Origin: Candidatus Methylomirabilota bacterium
GTDB taxonomy: Bacteria; Methylomirabilota; Methylomirabilia; Rokubacteriales; DASRDR01
NCBI GenBank assembly: GCA_036001225.1
Contig: DASYUM010000308.1
Coordinates: forward strand, 540 to 64,539
Reading direction: 5' to 3'
Length of the DNA: 64,000 nt
Shown here: piece by piece, positions 671-18,799 of the stretch
Layout of the letters: each line of letters begins with the position of its first letter
Position numbering within the stretch: the first letter of the stretch is position 1
Notes under the pieces: model-generated
Told to the model about the DNA's origin: nothing
The model's input: only the letters and a program-made list of their open reading frames with translations
Databases searched by the model: none
Position numbers and translations under genes: made by a program

Positions 671-1468
671 ATGACGAGCCGCCCGCCGCGCGTCGTCCAC
701 GGGCTGTTCCTGCTCCTCGTGGCGCTCCTGTTCCCCGGCTGCGCGGGTTGGCTGGCGCCCCCGCTCTCGGCCTGGTCGGCCGCGACCCCCCCGGGGGCGT
801 TCGAGGTCGGCCGCGACACGTTCGCGTTCCCCAACCAGATCCGGGCCGAACATCCGGAGCGCGCCGTCGACTTCGGCAACTACTGCATCATCATGGCGCG
901 GGCGGCCAGCCAGTTCTTCCGCTTCGCGCGCTTCGCCCCCGACGCGCCGCCGGTCTCGGACGCCGAGTACACGCGCCTGGCCCGGACGGTGATGAGCATC
1001 GGCGCCTGGGCGGGACCTCGGCCGCCCGAGCGACGGGTGGTAATTCCCGGCTACGCCGACCTCCACGCCCTCTCGCAGGCGCGGGAGTCGGCCGTCAAGG
1101 CGGCGTTCGACTCGAATACGCTCAGCATGTTCCACTGGCGAACGTGGCGGATCGTCCTGCCGCTGCTCCCCGGCCACCAGCGCCGGCTGGCCCGCGAGCT
1201 GGTCGAGGAATTGGCCGGCGGCCGGCCGGTGCCGCTGATGATCACCAACTTCCCCGACCCCGACCTCCTCAATCACGCCGTGCTGGTCTACGACTCCCGG
1301 CCGGGCGCGCGAGCGGTGGAGTTCTTCGCCTACGACCCGAACGATCCGACGACCCCGCTCGGCTTGCACTTCGACCCCGTCACGGGCAGCTTCTGGGTCG
1401 AGCCGCTGCCCTACAGCCCGCCGGGACGCATCCGTGCGTTCCGGCTCTACACCTCGCCCCTCCTCTAG
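671..1468 (+). CDS. Hypothetical lipoprotein (signal peptide + lipobox LFPGC), function unknown
   Basis: 265-aa ORF. The N-terminal hydrophobic stretch ends in L-F-P-G-C-A-G (lipobox-like). No domain recognised by eye. Confidence 0.45.
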   Translation: MTSRPPRVVHGLFLLLVALLFPGCAGWLAPPLSAWSAATPPGAFEVGRDTFAFPNQIRAEHPERAVDFGNYCIIMARAASQFFRFARFAPDAPPVSDAEYTRLARTVMSIGAWAGPRPPERRVVIPGYADLHALSQARESAVKAAFDSNTLSMFHWRTWRIVLPLLPGHQRRLARELVEELAGGRPVPLMITNFPDPDLLNHAVLVYDSRPGARAVEFFAYDPNDPTTPLGLHFDPVTGSFWVEPLPYSPPGRIRAFRLYTSPLL

Positions 1469-1640
1469 TGCGTACGCCGCCTACCGACGGGGCGAGGCCG
1501 GCCGCCCCGCCCCCCGGCCTCGTCGCGCCGGCCGTCGCTCCGCCCCGCACCTCGGGGGTAGTCGGCCGGCCGGCTCCTCGGCACCTTCGGTCCTCGGGTC
1601 CACGTCGTGATATCGCCCGACGTCTGGGAGGACGAGGGCG

Positions 1641-2846
1641 GTGAGCCCGCGCGCGGCTGAGCCGGTGGCGGTGACCGGTGCCGGCGTGGTCAGCCCGATC
1701 GGGCAGGACCTCGACGCGTTCTGGGCGGGCCTGGTCACTGGCGTGTCCGGGATCGCGGAGATCGAGCGCTTCCCGGTGGCCGACCTCCGGGTGACCCGAG
1801 GCGGCGAGGTGAAGAAGCTCCACCGCGTCGCCGAACTCACGCACGATGCGCGCCTGCCGGCCTGCCGGGCCTCGCGCTTCCTGATCCACGCCACCCGGGA
1901 GGCTCTCGCCCACGCCGGGCTGGCCGCCGATCCGCCCGAGCCGGCGCGGTTGGCGGTGGTGATCGGGACGGCGCTCGGCGGCATCGACGACGCCGCCCGC
2001 GCCCTGCGGGGTGACGGCGGGGTGCGGGCGCTGTGCGGCTCGCTCTACGATGGCCCCACCTGGAACCTCGCCCGCTGGCTCGACACCGAAGGGCCGGTGC
2101 TCACGGTGTCCACGGCGTGCGCCTCGGGGGCGACCAGCCTCGGCGTGGCGGCGGAGCTCATCCGGGCGGGGCGGGCCGACGTGGCGGTCGCCGGTGGCGT
2201 CGATGTCCTCTGCCGCTTCGTCCAGCGCGGCTTCAACGTGCTTCGCTCGCTCACCCGGGACCAGGTCCGTCCCTTCGACCGTCGGCGGAGCGGCATCCTC
2301 CTCGGCGAAGGCGCCGGCATCGTGGTGCTGGAACGCGCCGCCTGTGCCGCCGCCCGTGGTCGGGCGCCGCTCGGCTGGCTCCTCGGGCACGCCAGCACGG
2401 CCGACGGCGCCCACATCACGGCCCCCGACCCCGAGGGCCGGGGCCTCGCCCTCGCGATCCGGCAGGCGCTGGGCGAAGCCGGCCTCGGTCCGGACAGCGT
2501 GGAGTTCGTGAGCGCCCACGGGACCGGGACGCCCGCCAACGACCGGGTCGAGACCGACGTCCTCAAGCGGGTCCTCGGCCCGCGTGCCTACGCCGTCCCC
2601 GTCAACTCGATCAAGGCCCACCTGGGTCACACGATGGGAGCGGCGGCGACGCTGGAGGCGATCATGTGTCTGCTGGCCGGCCGCCACGGTCAGCTCCCGC
2701 CCACTCTCAACTACGGCGAGTCGGATCCCCACTGCGACCTCGACTGGGTCCCCAACGAAGCGCGGCGCCACCGGCCGCGGGTGAGCCTGTCCACCTCGCT
2801 CGGCTTCGGGGGCTGCAATGCGGCCCTCGTGCTGGCTGCCGCATGA
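1641..2846 (+). CDS. Beta-ketoacyl-ACP synthase (FabF/KAS II-like, type II FAS/PKS KS), active
   Basis: 401 aa. Active-site Cys in VSTACASG, the two catalytic His in SAHGTGT and IKAHLGHTMGAA, and C-terminal SLGFGGCNAALVL. GTG start with GGAGGA 10 nt upstream. Confidence 0.85.
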   Translation: MSPRAAEPVAVTGAGVVSPIGQDLDAFWAGLVTGVSGIAEIERFPVADLRVTRGGEVKKLHRVAELTHDARLPACRASRFLIHATREALAHAGLAADPPEPARLAVVIGTALGGIDDAARALRGDGGVRALCGSLYDGPTWNLARWLDTEGPVLTVSTACASGATSLGVAAELIRAGRADVAVAGGVDVLCRFVQRGFNVLRSLTRDQVRPFDRRRSGILLGEGAGIVVLERAACAAARGRAPLGWLLGHASTADGAHITAPDPEGRGLALAIRQALGEAGLGPDSVEFVSAHGTGTPANDRVETDVLKRVLGPRAYAVPVNSIKAHLGHTMGAAATLEAIMCLLAGRHGQLPPTLNYGESDPHCDLDWVPNEARRHRPRVSLSTSLGFGGCNAALVLAAA

Positions 2847-3823
2847 ACAGGGTGGCCTCGTCTGCCATCGCCGGCGTCCGGGCCGCCCACGCCCCGGCGC
2901 CGCGGATCGCGGGCGTCGGCCTCCTGACCGGCTGGGGCGAAGGCCCCGCGGCGCTCGCCCGGGCCCGAGGGAACACCCCGGCGTCGTTGCTGGCGGTGCC
3001 GACGCCGGCGCTCGGGGGGGAGCGGTTCCGCCGCGCCACCCGCGAGTGCCTGCTGGCGGCGGCCGCCGTGCGGGCGGCGACGGCCGAGGCGGGCCTCGAC
3101 GAGACGGCGCTGGCCGGTGAGCGGACGGGGATGCTCTACGCCAGCGCGACCGCCTATGCGGCGGCCAACCGCGCCTTCCTCGAGGACGAGGCGTCCACCA
3201 CGCTCCACTTTCCGTACACCGCGCCCAGCGCGGTGCCCGGCGAGGTGACCATCGCCTTCGGCATCCGGGGCCCCTACCTCAACCTGATGGGTGGCGGCCC
3301 GGCGGCGCTCCAGGCCCTCTGGTACGCCGCGCGGTGGCTGGCGGCCGGCCAGGTCGATCGGGTCCTCGTCCTCGCAGTCGAGACCGTGCACGAGGTCTGG
3401 GACCTCTTCGGCCGCGCGCGGCGGCTCTATCGCCGGCCGCTGGTCGAGGGGGCCGCCTGCCTCCTCCTCGAGCCGGGCGATGGGGCGTCGCTGGCCTGGG
3501 CGTCGGCGACGGCGCCCAGGACGGCGCGCCCCCACGCCGATCGTGTCGTGGGCGCAGTCCTCGACGCCGTCCTCGGGGACGGCACGCCGGCGACGGTGGC
3601 CCGGTGTTCGGGGACCCACGGGTTCGGGCGGGCCGAGGCGGCGGCGCTCGCCGGACGGCGGAGGTCGCCGGCCGTGGTGAGCGGGCCGGGCGAGGCGATG
3701 GCGTGCGGGCCACTCTTGGAACTCGCCGAGGCGCGGTCGCGCCGGGCGCCGGGACCCTGGCTGCTCACCGCTGCCTGGCGTAACGATTACAGCGCCCTGT
3801 GCTGGCCCACTCCGATGGCGTGA
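2843..3823 (+). CDS. KS-like protein lacking the catalytic Cys/His (chain-length-factor-like partner of the preceding KS)
   Basis: ATG at 2843 overlaps the upstream TGA (ATGA). 326 aa with a thiolase-fold-like N-terminus but no TACSSG, HGTGT or GH motifs. Confidence 0.6.
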   Translation: MNRVASSAIAGVRAAHAPAPRIAGVGLLTGWGEGPAALARARGNTPASLLAVPTPALGGERFRRATRECLLAAAAVRAATAEAGLDETALAGERTGMLYASATAYAAANRAFLEDEASTTLHFPYTAPSAVPGEVTIAFGIRGPYLNLMGGGPAALQALWYAARWLAAGQVDRVLVLAVETVHEVWDLFGRARRLYRRPLVEGAACLLLEPGDGASLAWASATAPRTARPHADRVVGAVLDAVLGDGTPATVARCSGTHGFGRAEAAALAGRRRSPAVVSGPGEAMACGPLLELAEARSRRAPGPWLLTAAWRNDYSALCWPTPMA

Positions 3824-3837
3824 AGCCGGGAGAGCCG

Positions 3838-4116
3838 ATGGACGAGCGCGCGATCCTCGACGAGTTGCGGGACATCATCGTCAAGCGGCTCAAGTTCGAT
3901 CCCAAGGTGGTCGCGGGCGTGACGTCCGAGACCCCGCTGCCGAAAGGGATCGAGAACTCCCTCGGCCTCGACTCCCTCGACTTCATCGAGCTGTCGATCG
4001 CCCTCGAGGAGCGCTTCGGGGTGGTCGTCCAGGAAGGCGAGCCGGTCGAGGCGCACTTCGCGACGCTGGGCTCGCTGGCGCGCTTCGTGCGCCTGTCCCA
4101 GGGCGGGCCTGCGTGA
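3838..4116 (+). CDS. Acyl carrier protein (discrete ACP)
   Basis: 92 aa with the phosphopantetheine-attachment motif LGLDSLDFIEL. GGGAGA RBS 6 nt upstream of the ATG. Confidence 0.8.
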   Translation: MDERAILDELRDIIVKRLKFDPKVVAGVTSETPLPKGIENSLGLDSLDFIELSIALEERFGVVVQEGEPVEAHFATLGSLARFVRLSQGGPA

Positions 4117-5327
4117 ACGACGTCGTCGTCACCGGCATCGGCGCGGTCAGCCCCTACGGGCTGGGCCGGGCGGCCTTCTGGGCCGGCCTGGCCGCCGGTC
4201 GCTGTACCCTCGCACCCCTGACCCTGTTCCCGACCGACGGCTTCCGCTGCCGAATCGCCGCCGAGGTCCCCCCGACGGTGACCTTGCGCGCCTCCGGGCG
4301 CCGGACGCGCGCCGACCGGCTGGCGATCGCCGCCGCCGACGAAGCCGTCGCCGACGCCGGGCTCCACCGGGCCGATCTCCGGCCGGCGGCGGTGGTGGTC
4401 GGCGGGATCGGTGGCGGCATGCTCGAGGCGGAGGCCTGGTACTGGCGCCTGCAGCGGGAAGGCGTGGACGACCCGCGGCTCCGCGGCGCGCTCCGCAGTG
4501 TCCTGCCATCGGCTCACGCCGAGATGCTGGCCCGTCGCTACGGCACCACCGGCCCCAAGGAAACCGTGGTGCTCGCCTGCAGCTCCGGCGGCGCCGCTCT
4601 CGGGATCGCGGCGGATCTGGTGCGGGCGGGGGAGACGCCGCTCGCCCTCGCCGGGGGTGTGGACGCCCTGACCCGGATCTGCTTCATGGGGTTCAACGCC
4701 CTGAAGCTCCTCGACCTCGAACCCTGTCGCCCCTTCGCCCGCGACCGCCGGGGCATGTCGCTCGGCGAGGGCGCCGGCTTCGTCGTCCTCGAAGAGGCCG
4801 CCCACGCGGCCGCCCGCGGGGCGCGCGCCTACTCGGCGCTGGCCGGCTTCGGGCTCACGACCGACGCCTACCACATGACGGCGCCCCACCCCGACGCCGA
4901 GGGAAGCGTCCGGGCCATGGTCGAGGCGCTGGAACACGCCCGGCTCCCCGCCGGGGCGGTCGGCTACGTCAACGCCCACGGCACCGGCACCGTGCAGAAT
5001 GACCGGGCGGAGGCGCTCGCGATCCGCAAGGTCTTCGGCGCCGAGGCCGTGCTCGTGAGCGCCAACAAGTCGTTGATCGGACACACCATGGCGGCGGCCG
5101 GCGCCCTGGAGGCGATCGCGACCGTTCTCACGCTCGTCCACGACCTGGTGCCCCCGACCGCCAACCTCGCCGAGCCGGATCCCGACATCCCCTTCGACTG
5201 CGTGCCGCTCACCGCGCGGCGGGCCCGGGTGGAGTGCGCCATGTCGAACTCCTTCGGCTTCGGCGGCCAGAACGTGAGCCTGGTGTTCCGGCGGGTGGCC
5301 GATCCTCGGCCGGCTGATGGCGGCTGA
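4113..5327 (+). CDS. Beta-ketoacyl-ACP synthase (second active KS)
   Basis: GTG start overlaps the ACP stop (GTGA). Active-site Cys in VLACSSGG, both His in NAHGTGT and NKSLIGHTMAAAG, and the MSNSFGFGGQNVSLVF C-terminus. Confidence 0.85.
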   Translation: MNDVVVTGIGAVSPYGLGRAAFWAGLAAGRCTLAPLTLFPTDGFRCRIAAEVPPTVTLRASGRRTRADRLAIAAADEAVADAGLHRADLRPAAVVVGGIGGGMLEAEAWYWRLQREGVDDPRLRGALRSVLPSAHAEMLARRYGTTGPKETVVLACSSGGAALGIAADLVRAGETPLALAGGVDALTRICFMGFNALKLLDLEPCRPFARDRRGMSLGEGAGFVVLEEAAHAAARGARAYSALAGFGLTTDAYHMTAPHPDAEGSVRAMVEALEHARLPAGAVGYVNAHGTGTVQNDRAEALAIRKVFGAEAVLVSANKSLIGHTMAAAGALEAIATVLTLVHDLVPPTANLAEPDPDIPFDCVPLTARRARVECAMSNSFGFGGQNVSLVFRRVADPRPADGG

Positions 5328-6552
5328 GGGGCCGCTCCGCGTCCTCATCACGGGCATTGGCAGCGTCAGCGCGCTCGGCGTCGGCGGCGCCGCCACGCTG
5401 ACCGCCGCCCTGGCTCGAGGAGCCTCCGGAATCCGGGCCGTCCGCGGCTTCGATACCGACGGGGCCGGTAGCCACCTGGGCGCGGAGGTCGAGGACCTCA
5501 GCCCGCACCTCGGCCCGGAGGAGGTCCGGCGGCTGGCCCGCGCCAGCCAGCTTGCTGTCATCGCCTGCCGGCTGGCCGTCGCCGACGCCGGTGTCGAGCC
5601 GCGGGGGCTGCCCGGGTTGGGCCTGGTGCTGGGCTCGGCGTACGGCGACTTCCGGTCGTCCGAGGCGTTCGCGCGCGGCTATCTCGGCCGGGGGCCGCTC
5701 GGGCTCTCGCCCGTCCTCTTCCCCAACACCGTGATGAACGCGATGGCGGCCCAGGCCGCGATCGCGGTCGGCGCCCAGGGGCCGATGCTGACGCTGAACC
5801 AGGACGCCATCGCCGGCGAGCTCGCGGTGGCCCGGGCCGCCCAGCTGATCGCGACCGGCCGCGCGCCGGCAGCGCTGGCCGGGGGGGTGGACGAGCTGTG
5901 CCCCGTTCTCTACCACGAGCTGGCTCGCCTCGGGACCAGCTCGCCGCGCGGGCACGGAGCCGAGGGGTGCTGGCCCTTCGATCGCCGCGCCAACGGGACG
6001 GTCCTGGGCGAGGGCGCGACGATCGTGGTCCTGGAGGCGGCCTCCAGCGCCCTGGCGCGCGGGGCCCGCGTCTATGCCGAGTTGGCCGGGGTCGCCACCG
6101 GGAACCTGCCCGCGGCCCCCCACGGCTTCCCGGCCCGCCGCCGCCGCGATCCGGTGGTGATCCGGCGCGCGTTGGCCCGGGCCCGGCTCGCCGCCGCCGA
6201 CGTGGACGCCGTCTACTGCACGGGGACCGGCGATCCCGCCGGAGACCGGTGCGAGCTGGACCTGATGGGCGCGGTATTCGAGGGGGCGCCCCGGGCGCGG
6301 CCGCTGCTGAGTGCCCTGACCCCGCTTGCCGGCGAACACGGCGGGCTGGGCGCGCTTCGCGTCGCCGCCGCCGCGACCGCGGTGGCCGGGGGCCCGCTGC
6401 CCGGCCTGCCGGACCTGGAGAGACCGGTGCGGCCGGACTGGGCCTTCGCGACCGGCGCGCCCCGCTCGTTGCCCGGCGCGGGGGCGATCATGGTCCACGG
6501 GCTGGCGCGAGGCGGTGGCCACGCCGCGCTCGTCTTGACGCGAGCCGCCTGA
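5317..6552 (+). CDS. KS-like/CLF-like protein with Gln in place of the active-site Cys (LNQDAIAG); catalytic His residues absent
   Basis: 411 aa. Its start overlaps the KS stop. It has thiolase-fold similarity, but Cys is replaced (NQD), HGTGT is replaced by YCTGTGD, and there is no GH motif. This is the KSbeta/CLF signature. Confidence 0.65.
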   Translation: MAAEGPLRVLITGIGSVSALGVGGAATLTAALARGASGIRAVRGFDTDGAGSHLGAEVEDLSPHLGPEEVRRLARASQLAVIACRLAVADAGVEPRGLPGLGLVLGSAYGDFRSSEAFARGYLGRGPLGLSPVLFPNTVMNAMAAQAAIAVGAQGPMLTLNQDAIAGELAVARAAQLIATGRAPAALAGGVDELCPVLYHELARLGTSSPRGHGAEGCWPFDRRANGTVLGEGATIVVLEAASSALARGARVYAELAGVATGNLPAAPHGFPARRRRDPVVIRRALARARLAAADVDAVYCTGTGDPAGDRCELDLMGAVFEGAPRARPLLSALTPLAGEHGGLGALRVAAAATAVAGGPLPGLPDLERPVRPDWAFATGAPRSLPGAGAIMVHGLARGGGHAALVLTRAA

Positions 6553-7307
6553 TGCCGCGCCTCGTCGCCGTCGTGCCGGTGTTCAACGAGGCGGCCACCG
6601 TCCCCGGCGTCGTGCGGCGGCTGGGCAAGCTCTGTCCGGTGATCGTGGTGGACGACGCGTCGACCGACGGCAGCGGCGCCGGCGCGGCCGCCGCGGGCGC
6701 CCGCGTCGTCCGCCTGCCGGCCCGCGGCGGCAAGGGGGCCGCCCTCCGGCTGGGCTTCGCGGAGGCGCTTCGGGCCGGTGCCGACGGGGTGGCGACCCTC
6801 GACGGCGACGGCCAGCACGACCCGGCCGAATTGCCACGCCTGATCGCCGCCGGCCGGCGCGTCCCCGAGGCGCTCGTCGTCGGCGACCGGCTCGGCGGAC
6901 TCGGCGACCGCATCCCGCGTGCGCGCCTCGCCGCCATCCGGATCGCCGACCGTTGGCTCGGCTGGCTCACGGGGATGCCGCTGCGCGACACCCAGTGCGG
7001 CTTTCGGCTCTACCCGGCAGTCTTTCTGCGGGCGGCTCGCCTGCGCGAAGAAGGCTTCGTGCTCGAGAGCGAAGCCCTCGTCGAAGCCGCCCGCCGCGGC
7101 TTCCCGCTGGTGTCGGTGCCGCTGCGGGCGATCTATCCGCCGGGGCGGGCCAGCCGCTTCCGCGGGCTCGCCGACGGCCTGCGGATCGGCCGCTATCTCG
7201 CCCGCGAGGTCGTGCGGGAGGCGGCGCGGCGGATCGCCGTCGAGCCGCGCGGCCGCCGCGTCCGGGTGGCCTGGCCACTGCCCGATGCCAGAGGCGGCGG
7301 TGGCTGA
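6552..7307 (+). CDS. Family 2 glycosyltransferase (DPM1/polyprenol-phosphate sugar transferase-like)
   Basis: ATG at 6552 overlaps the upstream TGA by 1 nt. Motifs VVPVFNEA...VVDDASTDGS...DGDGQHDP (DxD) are typical of GT2_2 / Dpm1-like enzymes. Confidence 0.75.
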   Translation: MPRLVAVVPVFNEAATVPGVVRRLGKLCPVIVVDDASTDGSGAGAAAAGARVVRLPARGGKGAALRLGFAEALRAGADGVATLDGDGQHDPAELPRLIAAGRRVPEALVVGDRLGGLGDRIPRARLAAIRIADRWLGWLTGMPLRDTQCGFRLYPAVFLRAARLREEGFVLESEALVEAARRGFPLVSVPLRAIYPPGRASRFRGLADGLRIGRYLAREVVREAARRIAVEPRGRRVRVAWPLPDARGGGG

Positions 7308-8583
7308 TCGCATCCGCGCCCGTTACGACGTCGCCATCGTCGGGGGCGGCCCCGCCGGCTCCACCGCGGCGACCTTGCTGGCCCGCGCCGGTCTCGACGT
7401 CGCCTGCTTCGAGCGGGAGCGCTTCCCCCGCTTCCACATCGGCGAGTCGCTCCTCCCGGCCTCCGTCCCGCTCTTCGACCGGCTGGGGCTGACGTCGCGG
7501 CTGGAGGGGGCCGGGTTTCTCCGGAAGTACGGCGCCGCCTTCATCGACGAGGCGGACGGCCGGCAGGTCTTCTTCAATTTCCGGCGAGGCCCGCACTGGG
7601 CCGACCACGCCTACAACGTCCCCCGGGCCGATTTCGACCGCCTGCTCCTCGATCATGCCGCCAAGGAAGGGGCGGCCGTCGTCGAGGGCGCCGAGGTCCA
7701 GTCGCTGGCGATCGAGCGCGACCGCGTGCGGCTGGAAGTGGCGACCGACGACGGCGGGCGTTATCCGGTAGAGGCGGCGTTCCTGGTGGATGCCAGCGGT
7801 CGCGACGCGGTGCTCGCCTCGCGGCTTGGCCGTCGGGAGCCCATGCCCAGTCTGGGCAAGGTCGCGCTCTTCGCCCATTACCGGGGCGCGGAGCGCTGGC
7901 TCGAGCGCCGGGAGGGCTACATCCGGATCTACCTCTTCGACCACGGCTGGTTCTGGTGGATCCCCTTCGCCGGCGACCTCACCAGCGTCGGCTGTGTCCT
8001 CCACCAGCGCGTGGTCAAGGCGCGCCAGGTCCGCCTGGAGCAGCTCTTCGAGGAGATGGTGGCCGCCTGCCCGAGCGTGGCCGCCGGTCTGGACGGTGCC
8101 ACCCGGACCACCGAGGTCTTGAGCGCGGCCAATTTCTCCTACCGGGGGACGCCGGCGGTCGGCGACCGCTTCGTCGCCCTCGGGGACGCGGTCACGTTCG
8201 TGGACCCCATCTTCTCGACCGGCGTCTACATCGCCATGCAATCGGCCGAGCTGGCCTGCCCGGCCATCGTGACCGGGTTCCGGCAGGGAGCGTTCCGCGC
8301 CTCGGCCTTCGACGGATATCGGCGCCGCATCGAGCGTGGCACCGGGCTCTTGTTCCGCTTCATCGACCAGTACTATGACCCTGCGTTCCTGGACGTCTTT
8401 CTCTCTCCGAGCCCACCGCAGATGTTGCGCGACGCCGTGGTGACGGTCCTGGTCGGGGGCGCCTTCCTCCACTATCCGCTCTGGCTGCGGGCCCGTCTGG
8501 CGGCGGTCTTCCTCGGGGCCGCCCTCCGGCGGCGGTCGCGCGCGCGGCAGGGATTGGCGGTCGAGTCGCGCCTGACGTGGTGA
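7285..8583 (+). CDS. FAD-dependent halogenase (tryptophan-halogenase family / geranylgeranyl-reductase fold)
   Basis: N-terminal Rossmann motif VAIVGGGPAGS. The flavin-halogenase signature WxWxIP is present as GWFWWIPF. The length (about 430 aa) fits. It overlaps the GT gene by 23 nt. Confidence 0.7.
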   Translation: MPEAAVADRIRARYDVAIVGGGPAGSTAATLLARAGLDVACFERERFPRFHIGESLLPASVPLFDRLGLTSRLEGAGFLRKYGAAFIDEADGRQVFFNFRRGPHWADHAYNVPRADFDRLLLDHAAKEGAAVVEGAEVQSLAIERDRVRLEVATDDGGRYPVEAAFLVDASGRDAVLASRLGRREPMPSLGKVALFAHYRGAERWLERREGYIRIYLFDHGWFWWIPFAGDLTSVGCVLHQRVVKARQVRLEQLFEEMVAACPSVAAGLDGATRTTEVLSAANFSYRGTPAVGDRFVALGDAVTFVDPIFSTGVYIAMQSAELACPAIVTGFRQGAFRASAFDGYRRRIERGTGLLFRFIDQYYDPAFLDVFLSPSPPQMLRDAVVTVLVGGAFLHYPLWLRARLAAVFLGAALRRRSRARQGLAVESRLTW

Positions 8584-9770
8584 GCGACCTGCGCCGGCTC
8601 TGGCCTCGCGGCTACGGCTTCGCCATCGCCGGCATCGCGGTGGGGATCGCCGGACTGGTCGCCCTCGGCGCTCTCGCCGAGCGGATCAGCCGCTTCATCG
8701 AGGGTGGCCATCGCTTCGTCCTCGGACAGATCTCGGTGGCCGGCGCCGGCATCGGCAGCGGCGCCGGCTTCACGGCCGGCGGCCTCCTCCCGCGTCGCAC
8801 GGTCGAGGCGATCGCCCGCGTGCCGGGCGTGCAGGTCGTCCAGCCCCAGGTCATGGTCCCGGTGGACCCGCGCAGCTCTCAGCTCTTCACGGTGAACCAG
8901 GAGCTGATCCTCGGCCTCGACCTGTCGGTCCCCATCCCCAACCGCAACTACCCCACGCTGCCCGTCGCCCGCGGGCGCTTCCTCGGCGCCGGCGATCGCG
9001 GCCGGGCGGTGGTCGGCGCCGACTTCGCCGCGGCGCGGGGATTGCGGATCGGGGACCGGGTCCGCCTCGGAGCCCGCGAGTTCGAGGTCGTCGGGATCCT
9101 CGAGCGCCTCCTCACCGCGCCCGATCGCTTCGCCTTCGTCCCGCTGGAGGACGCGCGCGACCTCTGGCTGGCCCTCGACCCTACCCTCCGGGTGCTGTTC
9201 GCGCCCGGCGGGCCGGTGGCGCGCGACGACCTCAACACCGGCGCCGCGGTGGGCTGGGCGCCCGGCGTGGATCCCGACGCGCTGGCCGCGCGGATCGCGC
9301 GCGAGGTGCCGGGGGTGAACGTGGTGCCTCCCGGCGAGGTGGCCCGCCAGCTCGCGTCCTCCACGACCTTCTTCACCTGGCTCATGGCCGGCGTGGGCGG
9401 GATCGGGCTCCTGATCGGCGGCCTCTCGCTCTCCAACACGGTCGCCGCCTCGACCTTCGAGCGGATTCGGGACTTCGGCATCAAGCAGGCTCTGGGCGCG
9501 ACCGATGTCCAGCTCTTCGGCGAGGTGCTCCGGGAGAGCCTGGTCGTGAGCCTCGCCGGCGGCGTGGTGGGGGCGCTCCTCGCTCTCGCCGCCGGGAGTG
9601 CGGTGGACGCCCGGGCCGCCCACGCCGGCCAGCAGCTCTTCTTCTTCTCCGGCCGCCTCTTCGGCTTCACGTTCGCGTTGGCTGCCGCCCTCGGCGCCAT
9701 CGCCGGCGCCTACGCCACCGCGCGCATCCTGCGGGTGCCGCCGGCGGAGGCCATCCGCCGGGGAGCTTAG
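8577..9770 (+). CDS. ABC transporter permease, FtsX/MacB/LolCE family
   Basis: 397 aa. One N-terminal TM helix, a large periplasmic domain, then 3 C-terminal TM helices (FtsX-like). GTG start overlaps the halogenase stop. Confidence 0.75.
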   Translation: MVSDLRRLWPRGYGFAIAGIAVGIAGLVALGALAERISRFIEGGHRFVLGQISVAGAGIGSGAGFTAGGLLPRRTVEAIARVPGVQVVQPQVMVPVDPRSSQLFTVNQELILGLDLSVPIPNRNYPTLPVARGRFLGAGDRGRAVVGADFAAARGLRIGDRVRLGAREFEVVGILERLLTAPDRFAFVPLEDARDLWLALDPTLRVLFAPGGPVARDDLNTGAAVGWAPGVDPDALAARIAREVPGVNVVPPGEVARQLASSTTFFTWLMAGVGGIGLLIGGLSLSNTVAASTFERIRDFGIKQALGATDVQLFGEVLRESLVVSLAGGVVGALLALAAGSAVDARAAHAGQQLFFFSGRLFGFTFALAAALGAIAGAYATARILRVPPAEAIRRGA

Positions 9771-9773
9771 ATC

Positions 9774-11270
9774 ATGGCGATGGACCACGACGTCCTGGTC
9801 GTCGGCGGAGGGAACGCCGCGCTCTGCGCCGCCCTGGCCGCCCGCGAGCGGGGGGCGCGCGTGCTCGTCCTGGAAAAGGCGCCCGAGGCCGAGCGGGGCG
9901 GGAACTCGCTCTTCACGGCCGGGGGCTTTCGCTTTCCCCACCGCGGCCTCGAGGATTTGCGGCGCGACGTGCTGGTCGATCTGACCCCGGCCGAGGCGGA
10001 CGCCGTCGAGGTGCCACCCTACCCGGAGGAGACGTTCTACGACGACCTCCTGCGGCTCACCGAGCACTGCGCGAATCCGGACCTGACCGATCTGTTGGTG
10101 CGGCGGGCCCGGCCGACCGTGGTGTGGATGCGCGGCCAGGGCGTGCGCTGGATTCTGATGCTCAACCGCCAGTCCTTCAAGGTGGGCGACCGCCACCACT
10201 TCTGGGGCGGCCTCCACGTCGAGGCGGTCGGCGGCGGCCAGGGCCTCGTCCAGTCGCTGTACGACCGGGCGGAGCGGCTCGGCGTGGCGGTGCTGTATGG
10301 CGTCGGGGCCCGGCGCCTTCTCCAGGACCGGCGGGGCGCCGTCACCGGCGTCGTCACCCGCGGGCCGGAGGGCTTCGAGGAGATCGCGGCCGGCGCGGTG
10401 GTCCTCGGCTGCGGGGGATTCGAGGCCAACCCCGAGTGGCGAGTCCGCTACCTCGGCCCCGACTGGGAGCTGGCGCGCGTGCGGGGAACGCGGCACAACA
10501 CCGGCGACGGGATCCGCATGGCGCTCGAGATCGGCGCCCAGCCCTACGGCCACTGGTCCTCCTGCCACGCCGTCCAGTGGGACGTCAACGCCCCCGAGTT
10601 CGGCGACCGCAAGGTCCTCGACCTCTTCCAGAAGCATTCCTACCCGCTGGGTCTCATCGTCAATGTCCGCGGCGAGCGGTTCGTGGACGAGGGCGCCGAC
10701 CTCCGAAACTACACCTACGCCAAGTACGGCCGCGAGATCCTGAAGCAACCGCTTCGCACCGCCTGGCAGCTCTTCGATCAGAAGGTCGTCCCCCTCCTCC
10801 GCGAGGAGTATCGGATTCGCGAAGTGACCAAGGTCGAGGCCGACACGCTGGAGGAGTTGGCGCGGAAGTGCGAGATCGACGCGGCCGGGCTCGGGCGGAC
10901 GGTTCACGCCTTCAACGCCGCCGTCCAGGACACGCCCGCCTTCAACCCGGCCGTCCTCGATGGCAAAGGCACCCGCGGGATCACGCCGCCCAAGTCCAAC
11001 TGGGCCCAGCGGCTCGACCGGCCGCCCTTCGTCGCCTTCGGCGTGACGTGCGGCATCACCTTCACCTTCGGCGGGCTCCGGGTCAACGGCGAGGCCGCCG
11101 TGCTCGACACCGAGGATCGCCCGATTCCCGGCCTCTACGCCGCCGGCGAGCTGGTGGGCGGGCTCTTCTACCACAACTACCCCGGCGGGGCGGGACTCAT
11201 GGCGGGGGCGACGTTCGGGAAGCTCGCCGGGGAGCAGGCGGCGGCATTCGTGGCGACCGCCAGTCGCTGA
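9774..11270 (+). CDS. FAD-binding flavoprotein of the TcuA / fumarate-reductase-flavoprotein-like family (putative C=C reductase or desaturase)
   Basis: VLVVGGGNAALCAAL dinucleotide motif. It has TcuA-like length and conserved blocks (GGFEANPEW, C-terminal GLYAAGE). Confidence 0.75.
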   Translation: MAMDHDVLVVGGGNAALCAALAARERGARVLVLEKAPEAERGGNSLFTAGGFRFPHRGLEDLRRDVLVDLTPAEADAVEVPPYPEETFYDDLLRLTEHCANPDLTDLLVRRARPTVVWMRGQGVRWILMLNRQSFKVGDRHHFWGGLHVEAVGGGQGLVQSLYDRAERLGVAVLYGVGARRLLQDRRGAVTGVVTRGPEGFEEIAAGAVVLGCGGFEANPEWRVRYLGPDWELARVRGTRHNTGDGIRMALEIGAQPYGHWSSCHAVQWDVNAPEFGDRKVLDLFQKHSYPLGLIVNVRGERFVDEGADLRNYTYAKYGREILKQPLRTAWQLFDQKVVPLLREEYRIREVTKVEADTLEELARKCEIDAAGLGRTVHAFNAAVQDTPAFNPAVLDGKGTRGITPPKSNWAQRLDRPPFVAFGVTCGITFTFGGLRVNGEAAVLDTEDRPIPGLYAAGELVGGLFYHNYPGGAGLMAGATFGKLAGEQAAAFVATASR

Positions 11271-11369
11271 GAGCCCGTGAAGGAATCGCCCCTTCCGTGT
11301 GAGCCGCGAGATACCCGGAGGGGGGGTCCGGGGGAGGAGCGCGCCGCTCCCCCCCGGCCCGACTGAGCG

Positions 11370-12041
11370 GTGCTGCGCGCCGTCGGGCTCCGCAAGACGT
11401 TTCGGGGTCCCGACGGCCGCGTCATCGAGGTGCTGCGGGGCTGCGACCTCACCCTGGCGCCCGGCGAGCACGTCGCGGTCGTCGGGCGCTCCGGCTCCGG
11501 CAAGTCCACGCTGCTCAATCTGCTCGGCTGTCTGGACCGCGCCGACGGCGGCGAGCTGTGGTTTGGCGACGCCGCCCTCACCGGCGCGGGCCGGCGAGCG
11601 CTGGCCCACTTCCGCGGCCATCAGCTCGGCTTCGTCTTCCAGGCCTTCAACCTGATCCCGTCGCTCACGGCCTGGGAGAACGTGCTCCTCGCCGCCCGCT
11701 ACGTCGGCCGGGACCGGACCCCGGCGACGCGGGCGGCGACCGCGCTCTTCGAGCGGCTGGGGATCGCCGAGCGCAAGGGCCACTACCCGCCGGCGCTCTC
11801 TGGCGGCGAGCAGCAGCGCGTGGCCTTTTGCCGGGCGGTGCTGAACGATCCCGCGGTGCTCCTCGCCGACGAGCCGACCGGCAACCTCGATGACGACAAC
11901 GCCCGCGTGATCCTGGACGAGCTGCGGTCGCGCGCGCGGACGGGTCGGGCGGCGGTCCTGCTGGTGACCCACAACGCCGACCTTGCCCGCGCCGCCGACC
12001 GGGTGCTCTACCTGGAGGACGGCCGGCTCGTCGCCGCCTGA
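11370..12041 (+). CDS. ABC transporter ATP-binding protein (LolD/MacB-type)
   Basis: Walker A GRSGSGKST, signature LSGGEQQRVA, Walker B LLADEPTGNLD, and an H-loop. Confidence 0.85.
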   Translation: MLRAVGLRKTFRGPDGRVIEVLRGCDLTLAPGEHVAVVGRSGSGKSTLLNLLGCLDRADGGELWFGDAALTGAGRRALAHFRGHQLGFVFQAFNLIPSLTAWENVLLAARYVGRDRTPATRAATALFERLGIAERKGHYPPALSGGEQQRVAFCRAVLNDPAVLLADEPTGNLDDDNARVILDELRSRARTGRAAVLLVTHNADLARAADRVLYLEDGRLVAA

Positions 12042-12061
12042 ACCGGCGCCGGACCGTCGGT

Positions 12062-12089
12062 CAGGAACTCGCCACCCGGCCGGTTCCTG
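12062..12089 (+). terminator. Stem-loop (caggaac-N14-gttcctg) just after the ABC ATPase stop; putative intrinsic terminator without U-tract
   Basis: A perfect 7-bp inverted repeat seen in the sequence. Confidence 0.3.
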
Positions 12090-12144
12090 GCCAGCGCGAC
12101 GGCCCGCCGCGTCGGTAAACCCTTGTCAGTTGCATGCTCCTGTT

Positions 12145-12160
12145 CTGGCATGCTGCGTGC
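12145..12160 (+). promoter_or_regulatory. Possible sigma54 (-24/-12) promoter upstream of the hybrid kinase gene
   Basis: CTGGCATGCTGCGTGCT has GG and GC elements at the canonical spacing (consensus YTGGCACGrNNNTTGCW). Confidence 0.25.
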
Positions 12161-12213
12161 TCTTTTCCCCGCCGTGCTCCAGACCCTGGACTCTGTTCGA
12201 CCGGCAGGATGTC

Positions 12214-14322
12214 ATGCGAAACCTTAAGGGGGCGCGCATCCTCGTCGTCGATGACGCCGACCGAGTGCGCGTGGTCATGGCGGAGATGCTCAGGGTCGCC
12301 GGGGCCGACGTGGCGGAGGCGGTCAGCGGCGAGGAGGCGCTCGGGCTGGCCGCCGGCTGGCGCCCCGACCTGGTCGTGCTCGATCTCGACTTGCCGGACC
12401 TGGACGGAGTCGAGGTCTGCCGCCGAATCAAGTCCGACCCCGCGACCGGGTCGACCCTCGTCCTCCTCCTCTCCGGCGTGTTTCTGGACGTGGCGGACCG
12501 GGTCCGGGGGCTCGAGGGCGGGGCCGACGGCTTTCTGACGAAGCCGGTCGAGCGGATGGAGCTGATGGCCACCGCCGCCGCCTTGCTCCGCTTGCACGAC
12601 AGCGAGCGCCGCCGGCGGGCGGCCGAGACCGTGGCCCGGGTGGCCCAGGCACTGACCGAGACCCTCGACGTGTCGGCGGTCGCCAACCGGATCGTGGAGA
12701 GCCTCCCGGCCCTGTTCGACCTCCGAACGGCAACCGTTCGCCTCTTGCAGCCGGACGGCTCGCTCCTCACCGTCGCGTCGGGCGGGCCGGCCTGCGAGCA
12801 TTACGAGGTCGGCCACGTCTGCCCGCCCGGAACCGGCGCCGCCGGCTGGGCGATCGCCGAGGGCGGGGCGGTCTGGGCCGCTGACCTGCTCGCCGAGCCT
12901 CGCATCCGGCTCACCGACGAGCAGCGGCAGCGGGCGGTGGCCTCGGCCAGCCGGGCCATCGTCGCGGTCCCCCTGCGGGTCAAGGGGCAGCTGCTCGGCG
13001 CCATCAGTCTGGCCGAAGAAACGAGCCGCACCTTCTCGGACGCCGATGTCGCGCTCCTGCAGACGTTTGCCGATCAGGCGGCGCTGGCGATCGAGAACGC
13101 GCGGCTCTACGAGGACGCCCGCCGAGCCTACCGGGAGCTGTCCGAGGCCCAACACCAGCTCCGGCAGTCGCAGAAGATGGAGGCGATCGGCCGGCTGGCC
13201 AGCGGGGTGGCGCACGACTTCAACAACCTGCTGACCGTCATCCGGGGCCGGAGCGAGCTCCTGCGGGCGCGGCTCGCCGCCGACGATCCCCTCTATCGCC
13301 ATGCCAGGCTGATCGAGACGACCGCCGAGCGGGCGGGGGCGCTCACCCACCAGCTGCTCGCCTTCAGCCGGAAACAGGTGCTCCAACCGAAGGTCCTCGA
13401 CCTCAACCAGGTTCTGGGCGGTATGGAGAAGATGCTGCGCCGGCTCATCGGCGAGGACATCGACCTGATCTTCGCGATGGATCCGGCCCTCGACCGGGTT
13501 CGGGCCGACCCCGCCCAGCTCGAGCAGGTGATCCTGAACCTGGTGGTGAACGCGCGGGACGCCATGCCCCACGGCGGCCGACTGGTCGTCGAGACGTCGA
13601 ACCTCCGGGTGGACGGTGAACCCGGCGGCGAGGCGCCGGGGTTGCAACCCGGCACCCACGTCATGCTGGCCGTCGGCGACAGTGGCGTCGGGATGGACGA
13701 GGAGACCCAGTCCCACGTGTTCGAGCCGTTCTTCACCACCAAGGAGCCGGGGACGGGGACCGGGCTCGGGCTCGCGACCGTCTACGGCATCGTGAAGCAG
13801 AGCGGGGGCGAGGTCGCCTTCGAAAGCGAGGTCGATCGGGGCACCACGTTCCGGATCTACCTGCCGGGGGTACAGGAACCGGCCGAGAGCGTCGCCGCCA
13901 GCCTGCCGCAGGTGAGCGCGCCGCGCGGCATCGAGACCATCCTCCTGGTGGAAGACGACGATGCGCTACGCGAGATGACCCGCGAGATGCTCGCCCTGTA
14001 CGGCTACCGCGTCATCGACGCGCGGCACCCCGGCGAAGCCTTGCTCGTCGCCGAGCGCCGCCCGGACCGGATCGACCTGCTGGTCACCGACATCGTCATG
14101 CCCCAGATGAACGGCTGTGAGCTGGCCGAGCGGCTCGTCGAGCTGCGCCCGAACCTGAGAGTCCTCTACATGTCCGGCTACGCCGACGAGACGGTCATCC
14201 GTCGGGCGGGCGTCAACGGGGCGCTCACCCTCCTCCAGAAGCCCTTCGCCGCCGGGACGCTGGCCCACAAGGTCCGCGAAGCCCTCGACGCCGCCCCCCG
14301 GCTGACCGGGGCGCGCCGCTAG
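12214..14322 (+). CDS. Hybrid sensor histidine kinase/response regulator (REC-GAF-HisKA-HATPase_c-REC)
   Basis: The N-terminal receiver has ILVVDD...[12 protein letters not shown]. It has a GAF-like middle, the H-box [10 protein letters not shown] boxes and a C-terminal receiver [11 protein letters not shown]...DIVMP. Confidence 0.8.
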
Positions 14323-14569: not shown

Positions 14570-15823
14570 ATGGGCGGAGTCCAGGGGACGCTGGTGGTCG
14601 CCAACATGCCGGGCGCGCTGACCGTGGTGGCGGGTCTCCCGCTGGTCGCGCGCGCGGTGCTCGAGCTGCGCGCGGCGGGCTACGCCGCGGTCACCGTCTT
14701 CGCCGGTCCCCAGGCCCGGCGGGTGGCGGCGCTGCTCGAGCCACGCTGCCCGGACGTGGCCGGCCTCGGCTCGCCGGACGAGGCGGCCGCCCTCGGCTGG
14801 CCGGAGCTCGTCCTCGTGGTGGCGGGCGACGTCCTCTTCGACCCCGCCGCGCTGGCGCCGCTCCTCGCCGCCGCCACGCCGGGCGGGGTCCACTTCGGGC
14901 AGGTGCCCGGAGCGCCGGGACCCGAGGTGCCGGCCGCGGTGTGCCCGGGGTCGGCCATCCCGCGCCTGCTGGCCGAGGCGAGCCGTGGTGGCGGGCTTCG
15001 CGTCGAGGGCCTTCGCCGCGTCGGCGGCGCGGCCGCGGGCGGGGTCCCGCTCACCGACGGCCTCCTCGTGCCCGCCGACCGGGCCCCGGCGCGGCGCGTC
15101 CTCGAGACGGCGCTTCTCGATCATCTGGCCCGGCGGACCAGCGCCAAGGACAGCTTCCTCGCCGCGCTCGTCGACCGCCGCCTGTCCCGGCCGCTGACGC
15201 GTCTCCTCCTCGGCTCGCCGGTGACGCCGTCTCAGATCACGGTGGTCAGTATCGCGCTCGGGCTCGCCGGGGCGGTGGGCCTGGCGACCATCTCCTACGC
15301 GGGCCGCCTCGCCGGCGTCGGCGCGTTGATCGCGTCGATCGTCCTCGACTGCGTGGACGGCGAGCTGGCGCGGGCCCGCTTCCAGCAGAGTGCGGCCGGC
15401 GCCCGGCTCGACGTGCTCGGCGATTACGTGGTCCACCTCGCGGCGTTCCTCGGTCTCGCCATCGGCCTCGCCCGGCAGGGGCTGCCGCCGGGAGGCGTCT
15501 GGGCCGCGGCCGGCCTCGTCGCCGGCGTCGGGGCCGCCATGGCCACGATGCACGCGATCTTCGTCCGGCCGGCGCTCCGCGGGGGGGGCGACCTCCACTG
15601 GAGCGGCGAGCCAGCCGGGTTGCCCGACACGCCCCTGACCGCGATCGTCGAGAAGCTCGCCAGCCGCGACTACACGTATCTACTCCTCGTCCTGGCCCTG
15701 CTCGGACACCTCGAGTGGTTCCTCTACGCGGCGGCGGTCGGCTCGTGGGTCTTCGTCGCCGGCGTGCTGGGCTATCGAGGCTATCAGCGGCTGGCCCTGC
15801 GCCGACCGGTGGTCTCGCAGTGA
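14570..15823 (+). CDS. Bifunctional-type protein: N-terminal MobA-like nucleotidyltransferase-like domain fused to a CDP-alcohol phosphatidyltransferase (IPCT/DIPPS-like architecture)
   Basis: The C-terminal half carries the CDP-OH_P_transf motif D-C-V-D-G-E-L-A-R...G-A-R-L-D-V-L-G-D plus multiple TM helices. The N-terminal 180 aa resemble a degenerate NTP-transferase fold. Confidence 0.6.
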   Translation: MGGVQGTLVVANMPGALTVVAGLPLVARAVLELRAAGYAAVTVFAGPQARRVAALLEPRCPDVAGLGSPDEAAALGWPELVLVVAGDVLFDPAALAPLLAAATPGGVHFGQVPGAPGPEVPAAVCPGSAIPRLLAEASRGGGLRVEGLRRVGGAAAGGVPLTDGLLVPADRAPARRVLETALLDHLARRTSAKDSFLAALVDRRLSRPLTRLLLGSPVTPSQITVVSIALGLAGAVGLATISYAGRLAGVGALIASIVLDCVDGELARARFQQSAAGARLDVLGDYVVHLAAFLGLAIGLARQGLPPGGVWAAAGLVAGVGAAMATMHAIFVRPALRGGGDLHWSGEPAGLPDTPLTAIVEKLASRDYTYLLLVLALLGHLEWFLYAAAVGSWVFVAGVLGYRGYQRLALRRPVVSQ

Positions 15824-18314: not shown

Positions 18315-18361
18315 CACCGGCCGCGCCACCCCGCCGGGCGGCTGGTCGAAAACGCGCCACC

Positions 18362-18376
18362 TGGCCAGCAACTTGC
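18362..18376 (+). promoter_or_regulatory. Candidate sigma54 promoter TGGCCA-N5-TTGC
   Basis: CTGGCCAGCAACTTGCG matches the -24 GG / -12 GC elements with correct spacing and an intact TTGC. It lies about 130 nt upstream of small ORF 18507 and about 420 nt upstream of the HAD gene. Confidence 0.4.
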
Positions 18377-18506
18377 GTCCCAGCCGGGACGACCACGCCC
18401 GCGCCTTCCGCGAAATCGCCGACCCGACGGGCGTTTGCGCCGGAACCTCAGAGCGGCCGCCGCCGTGGCACACCGCGTGCTTTACCACCTCGTCGGGAGG
18501 GCACCG

Positions 18507-18731
18507 ATGAAACTGGTGGTGAGCCAAGACGGGACGGTCGAGCGGGGGGGCAGCCGTGTCGTTCTCCGGCTCATCCAGGGCGGCGCCGCAGACCAGGCCC
18601 AGCGCCGGCTGCTGGCGCCGCCGACTTCAGCCCGATCCCAGACCCCGCCGGCCGCCGCTCCGGCCGTCGACGTCGAGGACATTCCGCTCTACCTCCGTCC
18701 GATCCCGGCCCGCCTGCCCCGCCTCTGGTAA
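18507..18731 (+). CDS. Small hypothetical protein (74 aa), Pro/Ala/Arg-rich C-terminus
   Basis: ATG preceded by GGGAGGG 6 nt upstream. No similarity recognised. It sits between the rSAM and HAD genes. Confidence 0.3.
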   Translation: MKLVVSQDGTVERGGSRVVLRLIQGGAADQAQRRLLAPPTSARSQTPPAAAPAVDVEDIPLYLRPIPARLPRLW

Positions 18732-18799
18732 CGCCGTCCGCTGAGCGCCCGCCGCTACCTTGACGCGCGCCAGGGCGCGCCGCTACGCTCGGCCGATCG

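Follow-up and report, generated by a model that had tools for sequence, protein, structure and literature searches.

The locus described here raises the question of what a flavin-dependent halogenase does inside a lipid- or polyketide-type operon of an uncultured bacterial phylum. The DNA analyzed, referred to as the window, is a 64,000-nucleotide (nt) stretch of contig DASYUM010000308.1 (assembly GCA_036001225.1, positions 540 to 64,539) from a Candidatus Methylomirabilota bacterium, with a G+C content of 72%. An open reading frame (ORF) on its plus strand, at positions 7285 to 8583, translates into an uninterrupted protein of 432 amino acids, which a preliminary description of the sequence had read as a flavin-dependent halogenase, adding that halogenases acting on carrier-tethered or lipid substrates are rare. 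The enzyme assignment holds and the rarity does not, variant B flavin halogenases, whose substrates are tethered to carrier proteins, being a well-known class (PMC8407142). By every sequence and fold test applied, the product looks like a genuine flavin-dependent halogenase; it belongs to a very large and well-understood enzyme class, of which it is an uncharacterized representative, and does not amount to a new kind of enzyme. We consider it probable, at roughly 65%, that positions 7300 to 8583 encode a two-component variant B flavin halogenase of the short PltA/Mpy16/ChlB4-like type that acts on an intermediate of its own operon. This reading builds on what was observed: the family to which the protein belongs, its catalytic residues and fold, the packing of the operon, synteny, and gene fusions. 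New here are the discrete halogenase clade, the distinctive operon conserved with it in an uncultured phylum, and its fusions with a family-2 glycosyltransferase (GT2); halogenases located beside GT2 genes and pairs of ketosynthase (KS) and chain-length factor (CLF) genes in pigment clusters are already known.

Both motifs on which the preliminary description relied are present in the translated ORF, namely the flavin adenine dinucleotide (FAD)-binding Rossmann motif GGGPAG (residues 20 to 25) and the WxWxIP motif WFWWIP (residues 222 to 227); residue numbers follow the 432-residue version that starts at ATG 7285. The GxGxxG pattern is not halogenase-specific and is not diagnostic by itself, with 269 matches in the six-frame translation of the window. 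The pattern W.W.IP has a single match there, at the halogenase, and the discriminating role ascribed to it agrees with the literature, in which WxWxIP sets halogenases apart from flavin monooxygenases (PMC8407142). The ORF represents more than a chance pair of motifs because it matches Pfam PF04820 (Trp_halogenase) with an E-value of 1.6e-32 and 113.4 bits against a gathering score of 21. Among NCBIfam models, the top match was the CmlS equivalog NF033113 (1.1e-65 over profile positions 3 to 345).

In a sequence search of the PDB, the best 14 matches were all halogenases or the unannotated flavoprotein 3nix, led by ChlB4 (8.5e-62), Mpy16 (3e-61), PltA (5.7e-58), FasV (3e-56), CmlS (2.8e-53), and CndH (1.6e-52), with RadH (1.5e-47), Bmp2 (about 1e-44), 3nix (6.9e-43), and then PltM and CtcP further down. 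The PDB halogenases span 8.5e-62 to 1.5e-18, and the first non-halogenase is FixC at 9e-13. The geranylgeranyl-type reductase in the PDB (3oz2) reached only about 1e-6, compared with about 1e-62 for the top halogenase. Grouping with geranylgeranyl reductases or UbiH-type hydroxylases, the outcome that the preliminary description had named as contrary to its reading, was not found: the geranylgeranyl reductase family model TIGR02032 (127.6 bits, cutoff 158.8) and the UbiH-family model TIGR01988 (42 bits, cutoff 224.65) both stayed below their thresholds, and halogenases come first in the rankings by sequence and by structure.

The structural comparison was made with an AlphaFold2 model built on 25 orthologues (predicted local distance difference test 86.4; predicted template modeling score 0.88). 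In a Foldseek search against the PDB, the best 40 matches were all halogenases or 3nix, with template modeling (TM) scores of up to 0.86. Mpy16, ChlB4, and PltA superimposed with TM scores of 0.83 to 0.84 over about 420 columns, the C-terminal helices included. The first monooxygenase or reductase in this ranking appeared at E = 7e-22, the lower matches from about 1e-21 on comprising monooxygenases and a geranylgeranyl-type reductase.

Residues associated with catalysis in flavin halogenases were located by alignment. The predicted catalytic lysine is present as K81, which aligns without gaps to RadH position 74 and CmlS chain position 91, and to the second lysine of PKKFGAAW in PltA. We take CmlS chain position 91 to be native K71 after a 20-residue tag offset, the same offset presumably placing E54 of the HIGES motif on native E44, and we take the PltA lysine to be K73. 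A literature search found no paper on PltA K73. In RadH, K74 is experimentally essential (PMC10377541). An equivalence of this lysine with K79 of PrnA and RebH, as proposed earlier, is indirect, being drawn through the short halogenases; in direct alignment, PrnA is matched over residues 15 to 73 only. With 427 to 432 amino acids, the halogenase shows the short architecture lacking a tryptophan-binding module, its similarity to PrnA being confined to the N-terminal 60 or so residues. A segment at residues 300 to 313 combines the second FAD motif with the Fx.Px.Sx.G tunnel motif (defined in PMC8407142), here FVDPIFSTG. In a family alignment of 25 orthologues with 54 to 81% identity, invariant positions comprise G20, G22, G25, E54, K81, W222, W224, I226, and P227, together with G300, D301, F305, D307, P308, F310, S311, and G313 of this segment. 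The alignment also contains a family-specific invariant C-terminal tryptophan in a tail ending ESRLxW. Compared with the nearest orthologue, in the closest related locus (L001), the ratio of nonsynonymous to synonymous substitution rates is 0.28.

The top matches by both sequence and fold, ChlB4 (chlorothricin; PDB 7fco), Mpy16 (marinopyrrole; 5buk), and PltA (pyoluteorin; 5dbj), are carrier-protein-dependent enzymes of about 430 to 450 amino acids, a length similar to that of the window halogenase, to which they are 31 to 36% identical. They share with it GxGxxG, HxGES, the motif lysine in K-x-G-A-A, WxWxIP, and GDAxxFxDPxFSxG, and they too have an acyl carrier protein (ACP) gene in the operon; in the window, an ACP gene with a DSL site (3838 to 4116) lies in the same operon and is syntenic in related loci. 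Unlike these enzymes, the window halogenase falls in a separate clade with 100/100 bootstrap support that has its own conserved ESRLxW tail and includes some GT2-fused members, and its operon lacks the proline-to-pyrrole or 6-methylsalicylate machinery of the three systems, encoding instead KS–CLF pairs, a GT2, and an ATP-binding cassette (ABC) exporter. CmlS (chloramphenicol; 3i3l) and CndH (chondrochloren; 3e1t) gave fold E-values of about 1e-32 to 1e-34, with TM scores of only 0.76 to 0.77, and the window halogenase lacks the C-terminal "winged helix" part of CmlS, which is some 200 residues long (432 amino acids versus a 570-position profile). CmlS provides a precedent for a flavin halogenase acting on an enolizable acyl substrate of the beta-keto or malonyl type (PMC8407142), and chemistry of this kind could, by analogy, fit an operon in which ketosynthases are the only chain-building enzymes. 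The highest coverage of any solved structure was given by 3nix, a structural genomics entry from Cytophaga hutchinsonii described only as a "flavoprotein/dehydrogenase", with TM scores of 0.85 to 0.86 on the query and 0.90 to 0.91 on the target, 26 to 27% identity, and a sequence match over residues 11 to 391.

The gene is tightly packed with its neighbors, although its exact start differs from that first drawn. GTG 7300 is more likely to be the start codon than ATG 7285, because GAGG lies 5 nt upstream of it and no such element precedes ATG 7285, because NCBI annotates a 100%-identical protein from a Methylomirabilota (Rokubacteria) metagenome-assembled genome at 427 amino acids, and because the orthologue N-termini (M-[AT]-D-R-I-R) coincide with the GTG position in the family alignment. 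The 23-nt overlap with the GT2 gene given in the preliminary description is correct for ATG 7285, as the GT2 ORF ends at TGA 7305 to 7307; from the better-supported GTG, the overlap is 8 nt (GTGGCTGA). Translational coupling of GT2 and halogenase is compatible with either start. From KS1 to the TcuA-like flavoprotein, all genes lie on the plus strand and are joined by overlaps of 1 to 11 nt or gaps of at most 14 nt, the CLF1 start codon, for example, overlapping the KS1 stop codon as ATGA. The coexpression with the cluster that had been proposed would follow from this packing, of which the gene overlap itself is observed. A scan for promoters and terminators returned nothing over shuffled expectation. 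The lipid- or polyketide-type context recognized earlier was borne out by two KS–CLF pairs, the ACP, the GT2, and the overlapping start and stop codons, as well as by synteny in related genomes. The operon is taken to contain two KS/CLF pairs because KS1 and KS2 retain the Cys-His-His triad and CLF1 and CLF2 have lost the active-site cysteine. The features of the locus are compiled in Table 1.

Table 1 Features of the halogenase gene and its operon in the window.
Feature	Position	Strand	Remarks
DUF8321/DUF8322 lipoprotein, first gene of the conserved cluster	671..1468	+	65-68% identical to the L001 gene with PF26995 and PF26997
Remnant (19 amino acids) of an LpxL-type (Lip_A_acyltrans) acyltransferase gene	1565..1621	+	tblastn matches only residues 151-169 of the L001 acyltransferase
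Ketosynthase KS1	1641..2846	+	Cys-His-His triad intact; Pfam ketoacyl-synt and Ketoacyl-synt_C; STACASG, AHGTGT, LGHT
Chain-length-factor-like CLF1	2843..3823	+	No active-site Cys (Gly in its place); weak ketoacyl-synt match, 3e-9
Acyl carrier protein	3838..4116	+	LGLDSLD phosphopantetheine site; Pfam PP-binding
Ketosynthase KS2	4113..5327	+	Cys-His-His triad intact; Pfam KS domains; LACSSG, AHGTGT, IGHT
Chain-length-factor-like CLF2	5317..6552	+	Cys to Ala, first His to Thr (alignment); Pfam KS domains, lower scores
Family-2 glycosyltransferase, polyprenyl-phosphate sugar synthase type	6552..7307	+	Pfam Glycos_transf_2
Flavin-dependent halogenase gene	7300..8583	+	427 amino acids from GTG 7300; alternative ATG 7285 gives 432
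GGGPAG, GxGxxG FAD-binding Rossmann motif	7342..7359	+	Residues 20-25; coordinates checked by translation
E54 in HIGES	7444..7446	+	Ungapped alignment to CmlS chain
K81 in LRKYGAAF, predicted catalytic lysine	7525..7527	+	Aligned to the RadH, CmlS, and PltA lysines
WFWWIP, WxWxIP motif	7948..7965	+	Residues 222-227
GDAVTFVDPIFSTG, second FAD motif (GD) followed by Fx.Px.Sx.G tunnel motif	8182..8223	+	Tunnel motif FVDPIFSTG, F305-G313; translation
MacB_PCD/FtsX-type ABC permease	8577..9770	+	Pfam; 7-nt overlap between its GTG start and the halogenase stop
TcuA-like FAD flavoprotein	9774..11270	+	NCBIfam NF006130 (tricarballylate dehydrogenase equivalog), 590 bits, cutoff 369
LolD/DevA-like ABC ATPase	11370..12041	+	Pfam ABC_tran; DevA-family 6e-51; syntenic in related loci

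The arrangement was followed across genomes by scanning 185,579 species-representative genomes, which yielded 80 loci, all metagenome-assembled and none from isolates, and by subsequent tblastn searches with every window protein. Two long contigs, whose halogenase orthologues are 76% and 56% identical to that of the window, have the same gene order plus an LpxL-type acyltransferase gene between the lipoprotein gene and KS1. The conserved order is lipoprotein, acyltransferase, KS–CLF, ACP, KS–CLF, GT2, halogenase, FtsX-type permease (62 to 84% identical and syntenic in related loci), and ABC ATPase. It is kept, as a whole or as the part retained on short contigs, wherever the halogenase is at least 50% identical, amounting to 15 loci: 12 from Methylomirabilota/Rokubacteria or unclassified, one binned as Verrucomicrobiia, and two binned as Proteobacteria/Deltaproteobacteria. 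Homologues of about 40% identity from Verrucomicrobiota, Acidobacteriota, Polyangia, and Betaproteobacteria lack the conserved arrangement.

In a neighbor-joining tree, the syntenic halogenases group together in a single clade (bootstrap support 100/100). A profile search of 1.84 billion cluster representatives likewise set this clade apart, the scores dropping from 593 bits to 409 bits at the next protein. The representative with the highest score, P0361 (780 amino acids), is a full GT2–halogenase fusion, and P0090, P0093, and P0107 of the same clade are also fusions. The search returned 2,161 cluster representatives at E <= 1e-30, and a further member is therefore of moderate interest as such, given that the family is large and mostly uncharacterized. 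We found no paper on Rokubacteria halogenases in the literature, and nothing relevant on an aryl-polyene cluster in Rokubacteria or Methylomirabilota.

Halogenase activity, halide preference, ACP dependence, and the product are predicted here, the reaction steps being taken from the flavin halogenase family and the substrate from the gene context. Reduced FAD (FADH2) delivered by a separate reductase would bind the GGGPAG Rossmann site and react with O2 to give a C4a-hydroperoxyflavin, on which attack by chloride or bromide would generate HOCl or HOBr. The strand bearing WFWWIP would hold the organic substrate off the flavin, so that hydroxylation is avoided, and the hypohalous acid would move through the tunnel lined by F305-x-D-P-x-F-S-x-G to K81, with E54 close by. 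From K81, the halogen would then pass in electrophilic form to an electron-rich carbon; the substrate is probably a polyketide or fatty-acyl chain assembled by the two KS/CLF pairs on the single ACP of the operon. Halogenation could occur either on the ACP-tethered chain or after the adjacent GT2 has acted, at the membrane, and the FtsX/LolD-type ABC transporter might subsequently handle or export the product as an envelope glycolipid.

The source of the electron-rich carbon is left unexplained by the gene content, because no dehydratase, aryl-starter, or other canonical aryl-polyene genes were seen. Three candidates can be named: an aromatic ring arising from a poly-beta-keto chain left unreduced, an enolizable beta-keto acyl group, by analogy with the chemistry proposed for CmlS, and a polyene built with housekeeping reductase and dehydratase enzymes. 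A more far-reaching proposal, which we regard as possible but speculative, is that the halogenase clade, together with the GT2, two KS–CLF pairs, ACP, papain-like lipoprotein, and LolCDE/DevCA-like exporter, makes a so far undescribed class of halogenated polyketide glycolipids of the Methylomirabilota envelope, the halogen being added at the membrane to a lipid-linked substrate that need not be aromatic, such as an enolizable beta-keto acyl chain of the kind proposed for CmlS.

Several observations weigh against a variant B halogenase dedicated to this operon. The CmlS equivalog model, although the top NCBIfam match, was widely missed at 222.3 bits against a cutoff of 900, and the hydroxylase model QhpG gave a strong sub-threshold match (165 versus 240 bits). 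The neighbor-joining tree left its deep branches unresolved, all non-PDB sequences coming together in only 2 of 100 replicates, and hence does not establish the closest characterized subfamily. Dependence on an ACP is suggested only through likeness to PltA, Mpy16, and ChlB4. Pfam domain scans revealed no flavin reductase in the operon, nor does the operon encode a tyrosine ammonia-lyase, a chorismatase, or a proline-oxidizing enzyme, leaving no obvious aromatic or pyrrole source. A dedicated dehydratase was not found in any syntenic locus, and a ketoreductase-like short-chain dehydrogenase/reductase (SDR) gene occurs in only five related loci, being absent upstream of the lipoprotein gene in both the window and L001; the sole SDR of the window is 20 kb away. 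Finally, 166 bp (1482 to 1647) of the window stand for about 966 bp of L001, the LpxL-type acyltransferase gene, which L001 and most syntenic loci have between the lipoprotein gene and KS1, having been deleted. This deletion is either a real loss or an assembly artifact, and because of it the pathway may be incomplete in this genome.

The enzyme might instead serve a canonical aryl-polyene pigment pathway (xanthomonadin, flexirubin, or arcuflavin) as its ring halogenase, adding chlorine or bromine to the hydroxyphenyl head group while the aryl polyene is bound to the ACP, prior to lipid esterification and outer-membrane export, a reading that we consider rather unlikely. Its appeal lies in the nearest cultured homologues, found by a tblastn search of plasmids, from Azospirillum ramasamyi (39.9%) and Burkholderia sp. 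SFA1 (37.7%), both of which reside on large plasmids in aryl-polyene/xanthomonadin-type clusters. The Azospirillum cluster encodes, in order, MipA, halogenase, acyltransferase, GT2, FabG, dehydratase, CLF, KS, methyltransferase, deacetylase, MMPL, LolA, ligase, and ACP; acyltransferase, FabG, KS, MMPL, LolA, AMP-ligase, and ACP are common to both clusters, and GT2, dehydratase, and an annotated CLF were named for that of Azospirillum. These cluster halogenases, among them the product of the Azospirillum plasmid gene (WP_111069282), are the best cultured matches at 37 to 40% identity over about 91% of the length. The window KS proteins are 37 to 45% and the GT2 34% (5e-18) identical to proteins of the Azospirillum cluster, and the KS proteins are 31 to 38% identical to ApeO/ApeR and 37 to 41% identical to the Azospirillum KS. 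Similarly, the GT2 is 34% identical to the N-terminal GT2 half of Escherichia coli ApeJ (6e-30), the ACP shares 30% identity with E. coli ApeE (5e-11), and the L001 acyltransferase, whose gene is deleted in the window, is 27% identical to the C-terminal half of ApeJ (6e-15). The combination of KS–CLF and ACP genes found in aryl-polyene clusters is also present, with two KS–CLF pairs and one ACP. In the literature, a KS–CLF pair, a dolichyl-phosphate-mannose-synthase-like GT2, and a halogenase occur together in xanthomonadin-type clusters (PMC3691225), and the halogenase ArcA is annotated in the arcuflavin cluster of Azoarcus (PMC3949708). Aryl-polyene-cluster halogenases are known there from annotation and brominated products; our searches found no enzymology on them and no paper linking flavin-dependent halogenases with the term arylpolyene. 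Nevertheless, the operon is not a canonical aryl-polyene cluster. Homologues of dehydratase, thioesterase, LolA, and MMPL were not found in the window cluster or the syntenic loci, and neither the window nor the 14 syntenic loci contain homologues of ApeP, ApeI, or the Azospirillum dehydratase. The methyltransferase and aryl-acid ligase of such clusters are likewise missing from the window cluster. In place of the LolA-like, MMPL, and DUF3261 export genes, for which there were no homologues, an FtsX/MacB_PCD permease and a LolD-like ATPase are present (194 bits for NCBIfam LolD, under the cutoff of 307.75). No aryl-starter supply was seen in 671 to 12041, including no ApeH homologue, the sequence before window position 1 lying outside the search; a PaaK-like AMP-binding gene two genes upstream of the cluster, which would favor an aryl starter, occurs in L001 only and is not conserved among loci. 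The window cluster has a second KS–CLF pair rather than a KS–CLF plus a lone KS, and additionally contains the DUF8321/8322 lipoprotein and the FtsX/LolD transporter. Moreover, its halogenase clade is distinct from the aryl-polyene-cluster halogenases, with 36 to 38% identity between them and 100/100 bootstrap support for each.

Two further readings place the enzyme outside an acyl-chain pathway or outside the halogenases. We regard as improbable a real halogenase whose substrate, like those of RadH and PltM, is a free small molecule (a phenol, for instance) and whose operon position reflects loose coregulation only. RadH, a free-substrate phenol halogenase, matches at 1.5e-47 with a TM score of 0.81, carrier-protein dependence cannot be read from sequence, and a sister subfamily of about 40% identity exists as a stand-alone gene without conserved neighbors. 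In contrast, carrier-tethered substrates are the established or presumed targets of the three top neighbors, ChlB4, Mpy16, and PltA (PMC8407142), and strict synteny with ACP, KS–CLF, and GT2 genes in about 15 loci, overlapping genes, and GT2–halogenase fusions all argue for a tie to the operon. It is more doubtful still that the protein has a halogenase fold and works as a flavin monooxygenase or reductase on a lipid, in the manner of the hydroxylases QhpG and LodB or of geranylgeranyl reductases. Such a function would be consistent with the NCBIfam matches to QhpG (165 bits), the geranylgeranyl reductase family (128 bits), and LodB (118 bits), with an operon in which neither an obvious electron-rich substrate nor a flavin reductase is apparent, and with the NCBI name, which is merely "NAD(P)/FAD-dependent oxidoreductase". 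All three models, however, stay under their curated cutoffs, and the lead of halogenases over any monooxygenase or reductase exceeds 30 orders of magnitude for sequence E-values and 3 for fold E-values. Furthermore, WxWxIP, the lysine, the glutamate, and Fx.Px.Sx.G are present and invariant; had the function been lost, one would expect these features to have become less constrained.

If the variant B halogenase proposed here is active, an uncultured soil phylum would have such an enzyme linked to a type II polyketide pathway of the lipid type, a setting from which halogenated products are undescribed. The enzyme would also offer the biocatalyst repertoire a new substrate class, possibly with a membrane-associated GT2–halogenase pairing, and the isotope patterns of chlorine and bromine would provide a mass-spectrometric handle on a conserved envelope-lipid operon of Methylomirabilota.

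The lipoprotein at the head of the cluster has a lipobox with an invariant C24, in addition to invariant C72, H202, and D222, and 344 homologues at E <= 1e-5; its papain-like fold matches are weak, with none at E <= 1e-3. Directly upstream of its gene, a ketoreductase-like SDR gene is found in L002, L004, L005, L006, and L017 (at about 1000 to 3400 in each). The copies in the latter four are about 70% identical to the L002 SDR, which forms one ORF with the lipoprotein gene. This fusion suggested that 671 to 1468 might encode the missing dehydratase, an idea rejected on account of the lipoprotein signal, the invariant Cys, His, and Asp residues, and fold matches that are weak and papain-like only. 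At the other end of the operon, the TcuA-like flavoprotein gene separates the ABC permease gene from that of the ATPase only in the window and in L001, its closest relative. A hybrid histidine kinase (receiver, GAF, HisKA, HATPase, and second receiver domains) is encoded at 11983 to 14322, where L001 has an unannotated 558-residue protein. Beyond the operon, positions 14570 to 19609 carry lipid head-group genes, comprising an NTP-transferase/CDP-alcohol phosphatidyltransferase, LPG_synthase_TM, an HpnJ equivalog, and a Cof-type HAD phosphatase. The HpnJ equivalog, a hopanoid-associated radical S-adenosylmethionine (SAM) protein, scored 778 bits against 577.6, and no other hopanoid genes were seen in the scanned part of the window. 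In most syntenic loci, an HpnJ-like gene of about 71% identity follows the halogenase at a distance of 4 to 6 kb downstream.

Other halogenase homologues occur in varied contexts. P0458, a more distant relative, is an ABC-ATPase–halogenase fusion, and several loci of Acidobacteriota have a gene for a LolD-like ATPase immediately upstream of the halogenase homologue, on the opposite strand. L015 (6321 to 12805) contains a reduced cluster of one ACP, one KS–CLF pair, GT2, and halogenase, directly followed by a different, B12-binding radical SAM gene. The sister halogenase-like subfamily (L041, L085, L086, and P0121 to P0240) is 62 to 92% identical across hits named as Casimicrobiaceae (Betaproteobacteria) and Thermoanaerobaculia/Acidobacteriota, an unexplained cross-phylum conservation, and has no conserved gene neighborhood; a search seeded with its betaproteobacterial member L041 (42% identical) returned environmental proteins only and no conserved gene contexts. 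Lastly, on the Ralstonia wenshanensis plasmid p56D2 (L088, 13249 to 15218), FabG2 and a halogenase homologue (34% identical) are encoded within a flagellar gene region, and 116 Ralstonia plasmid records carry a homologue.

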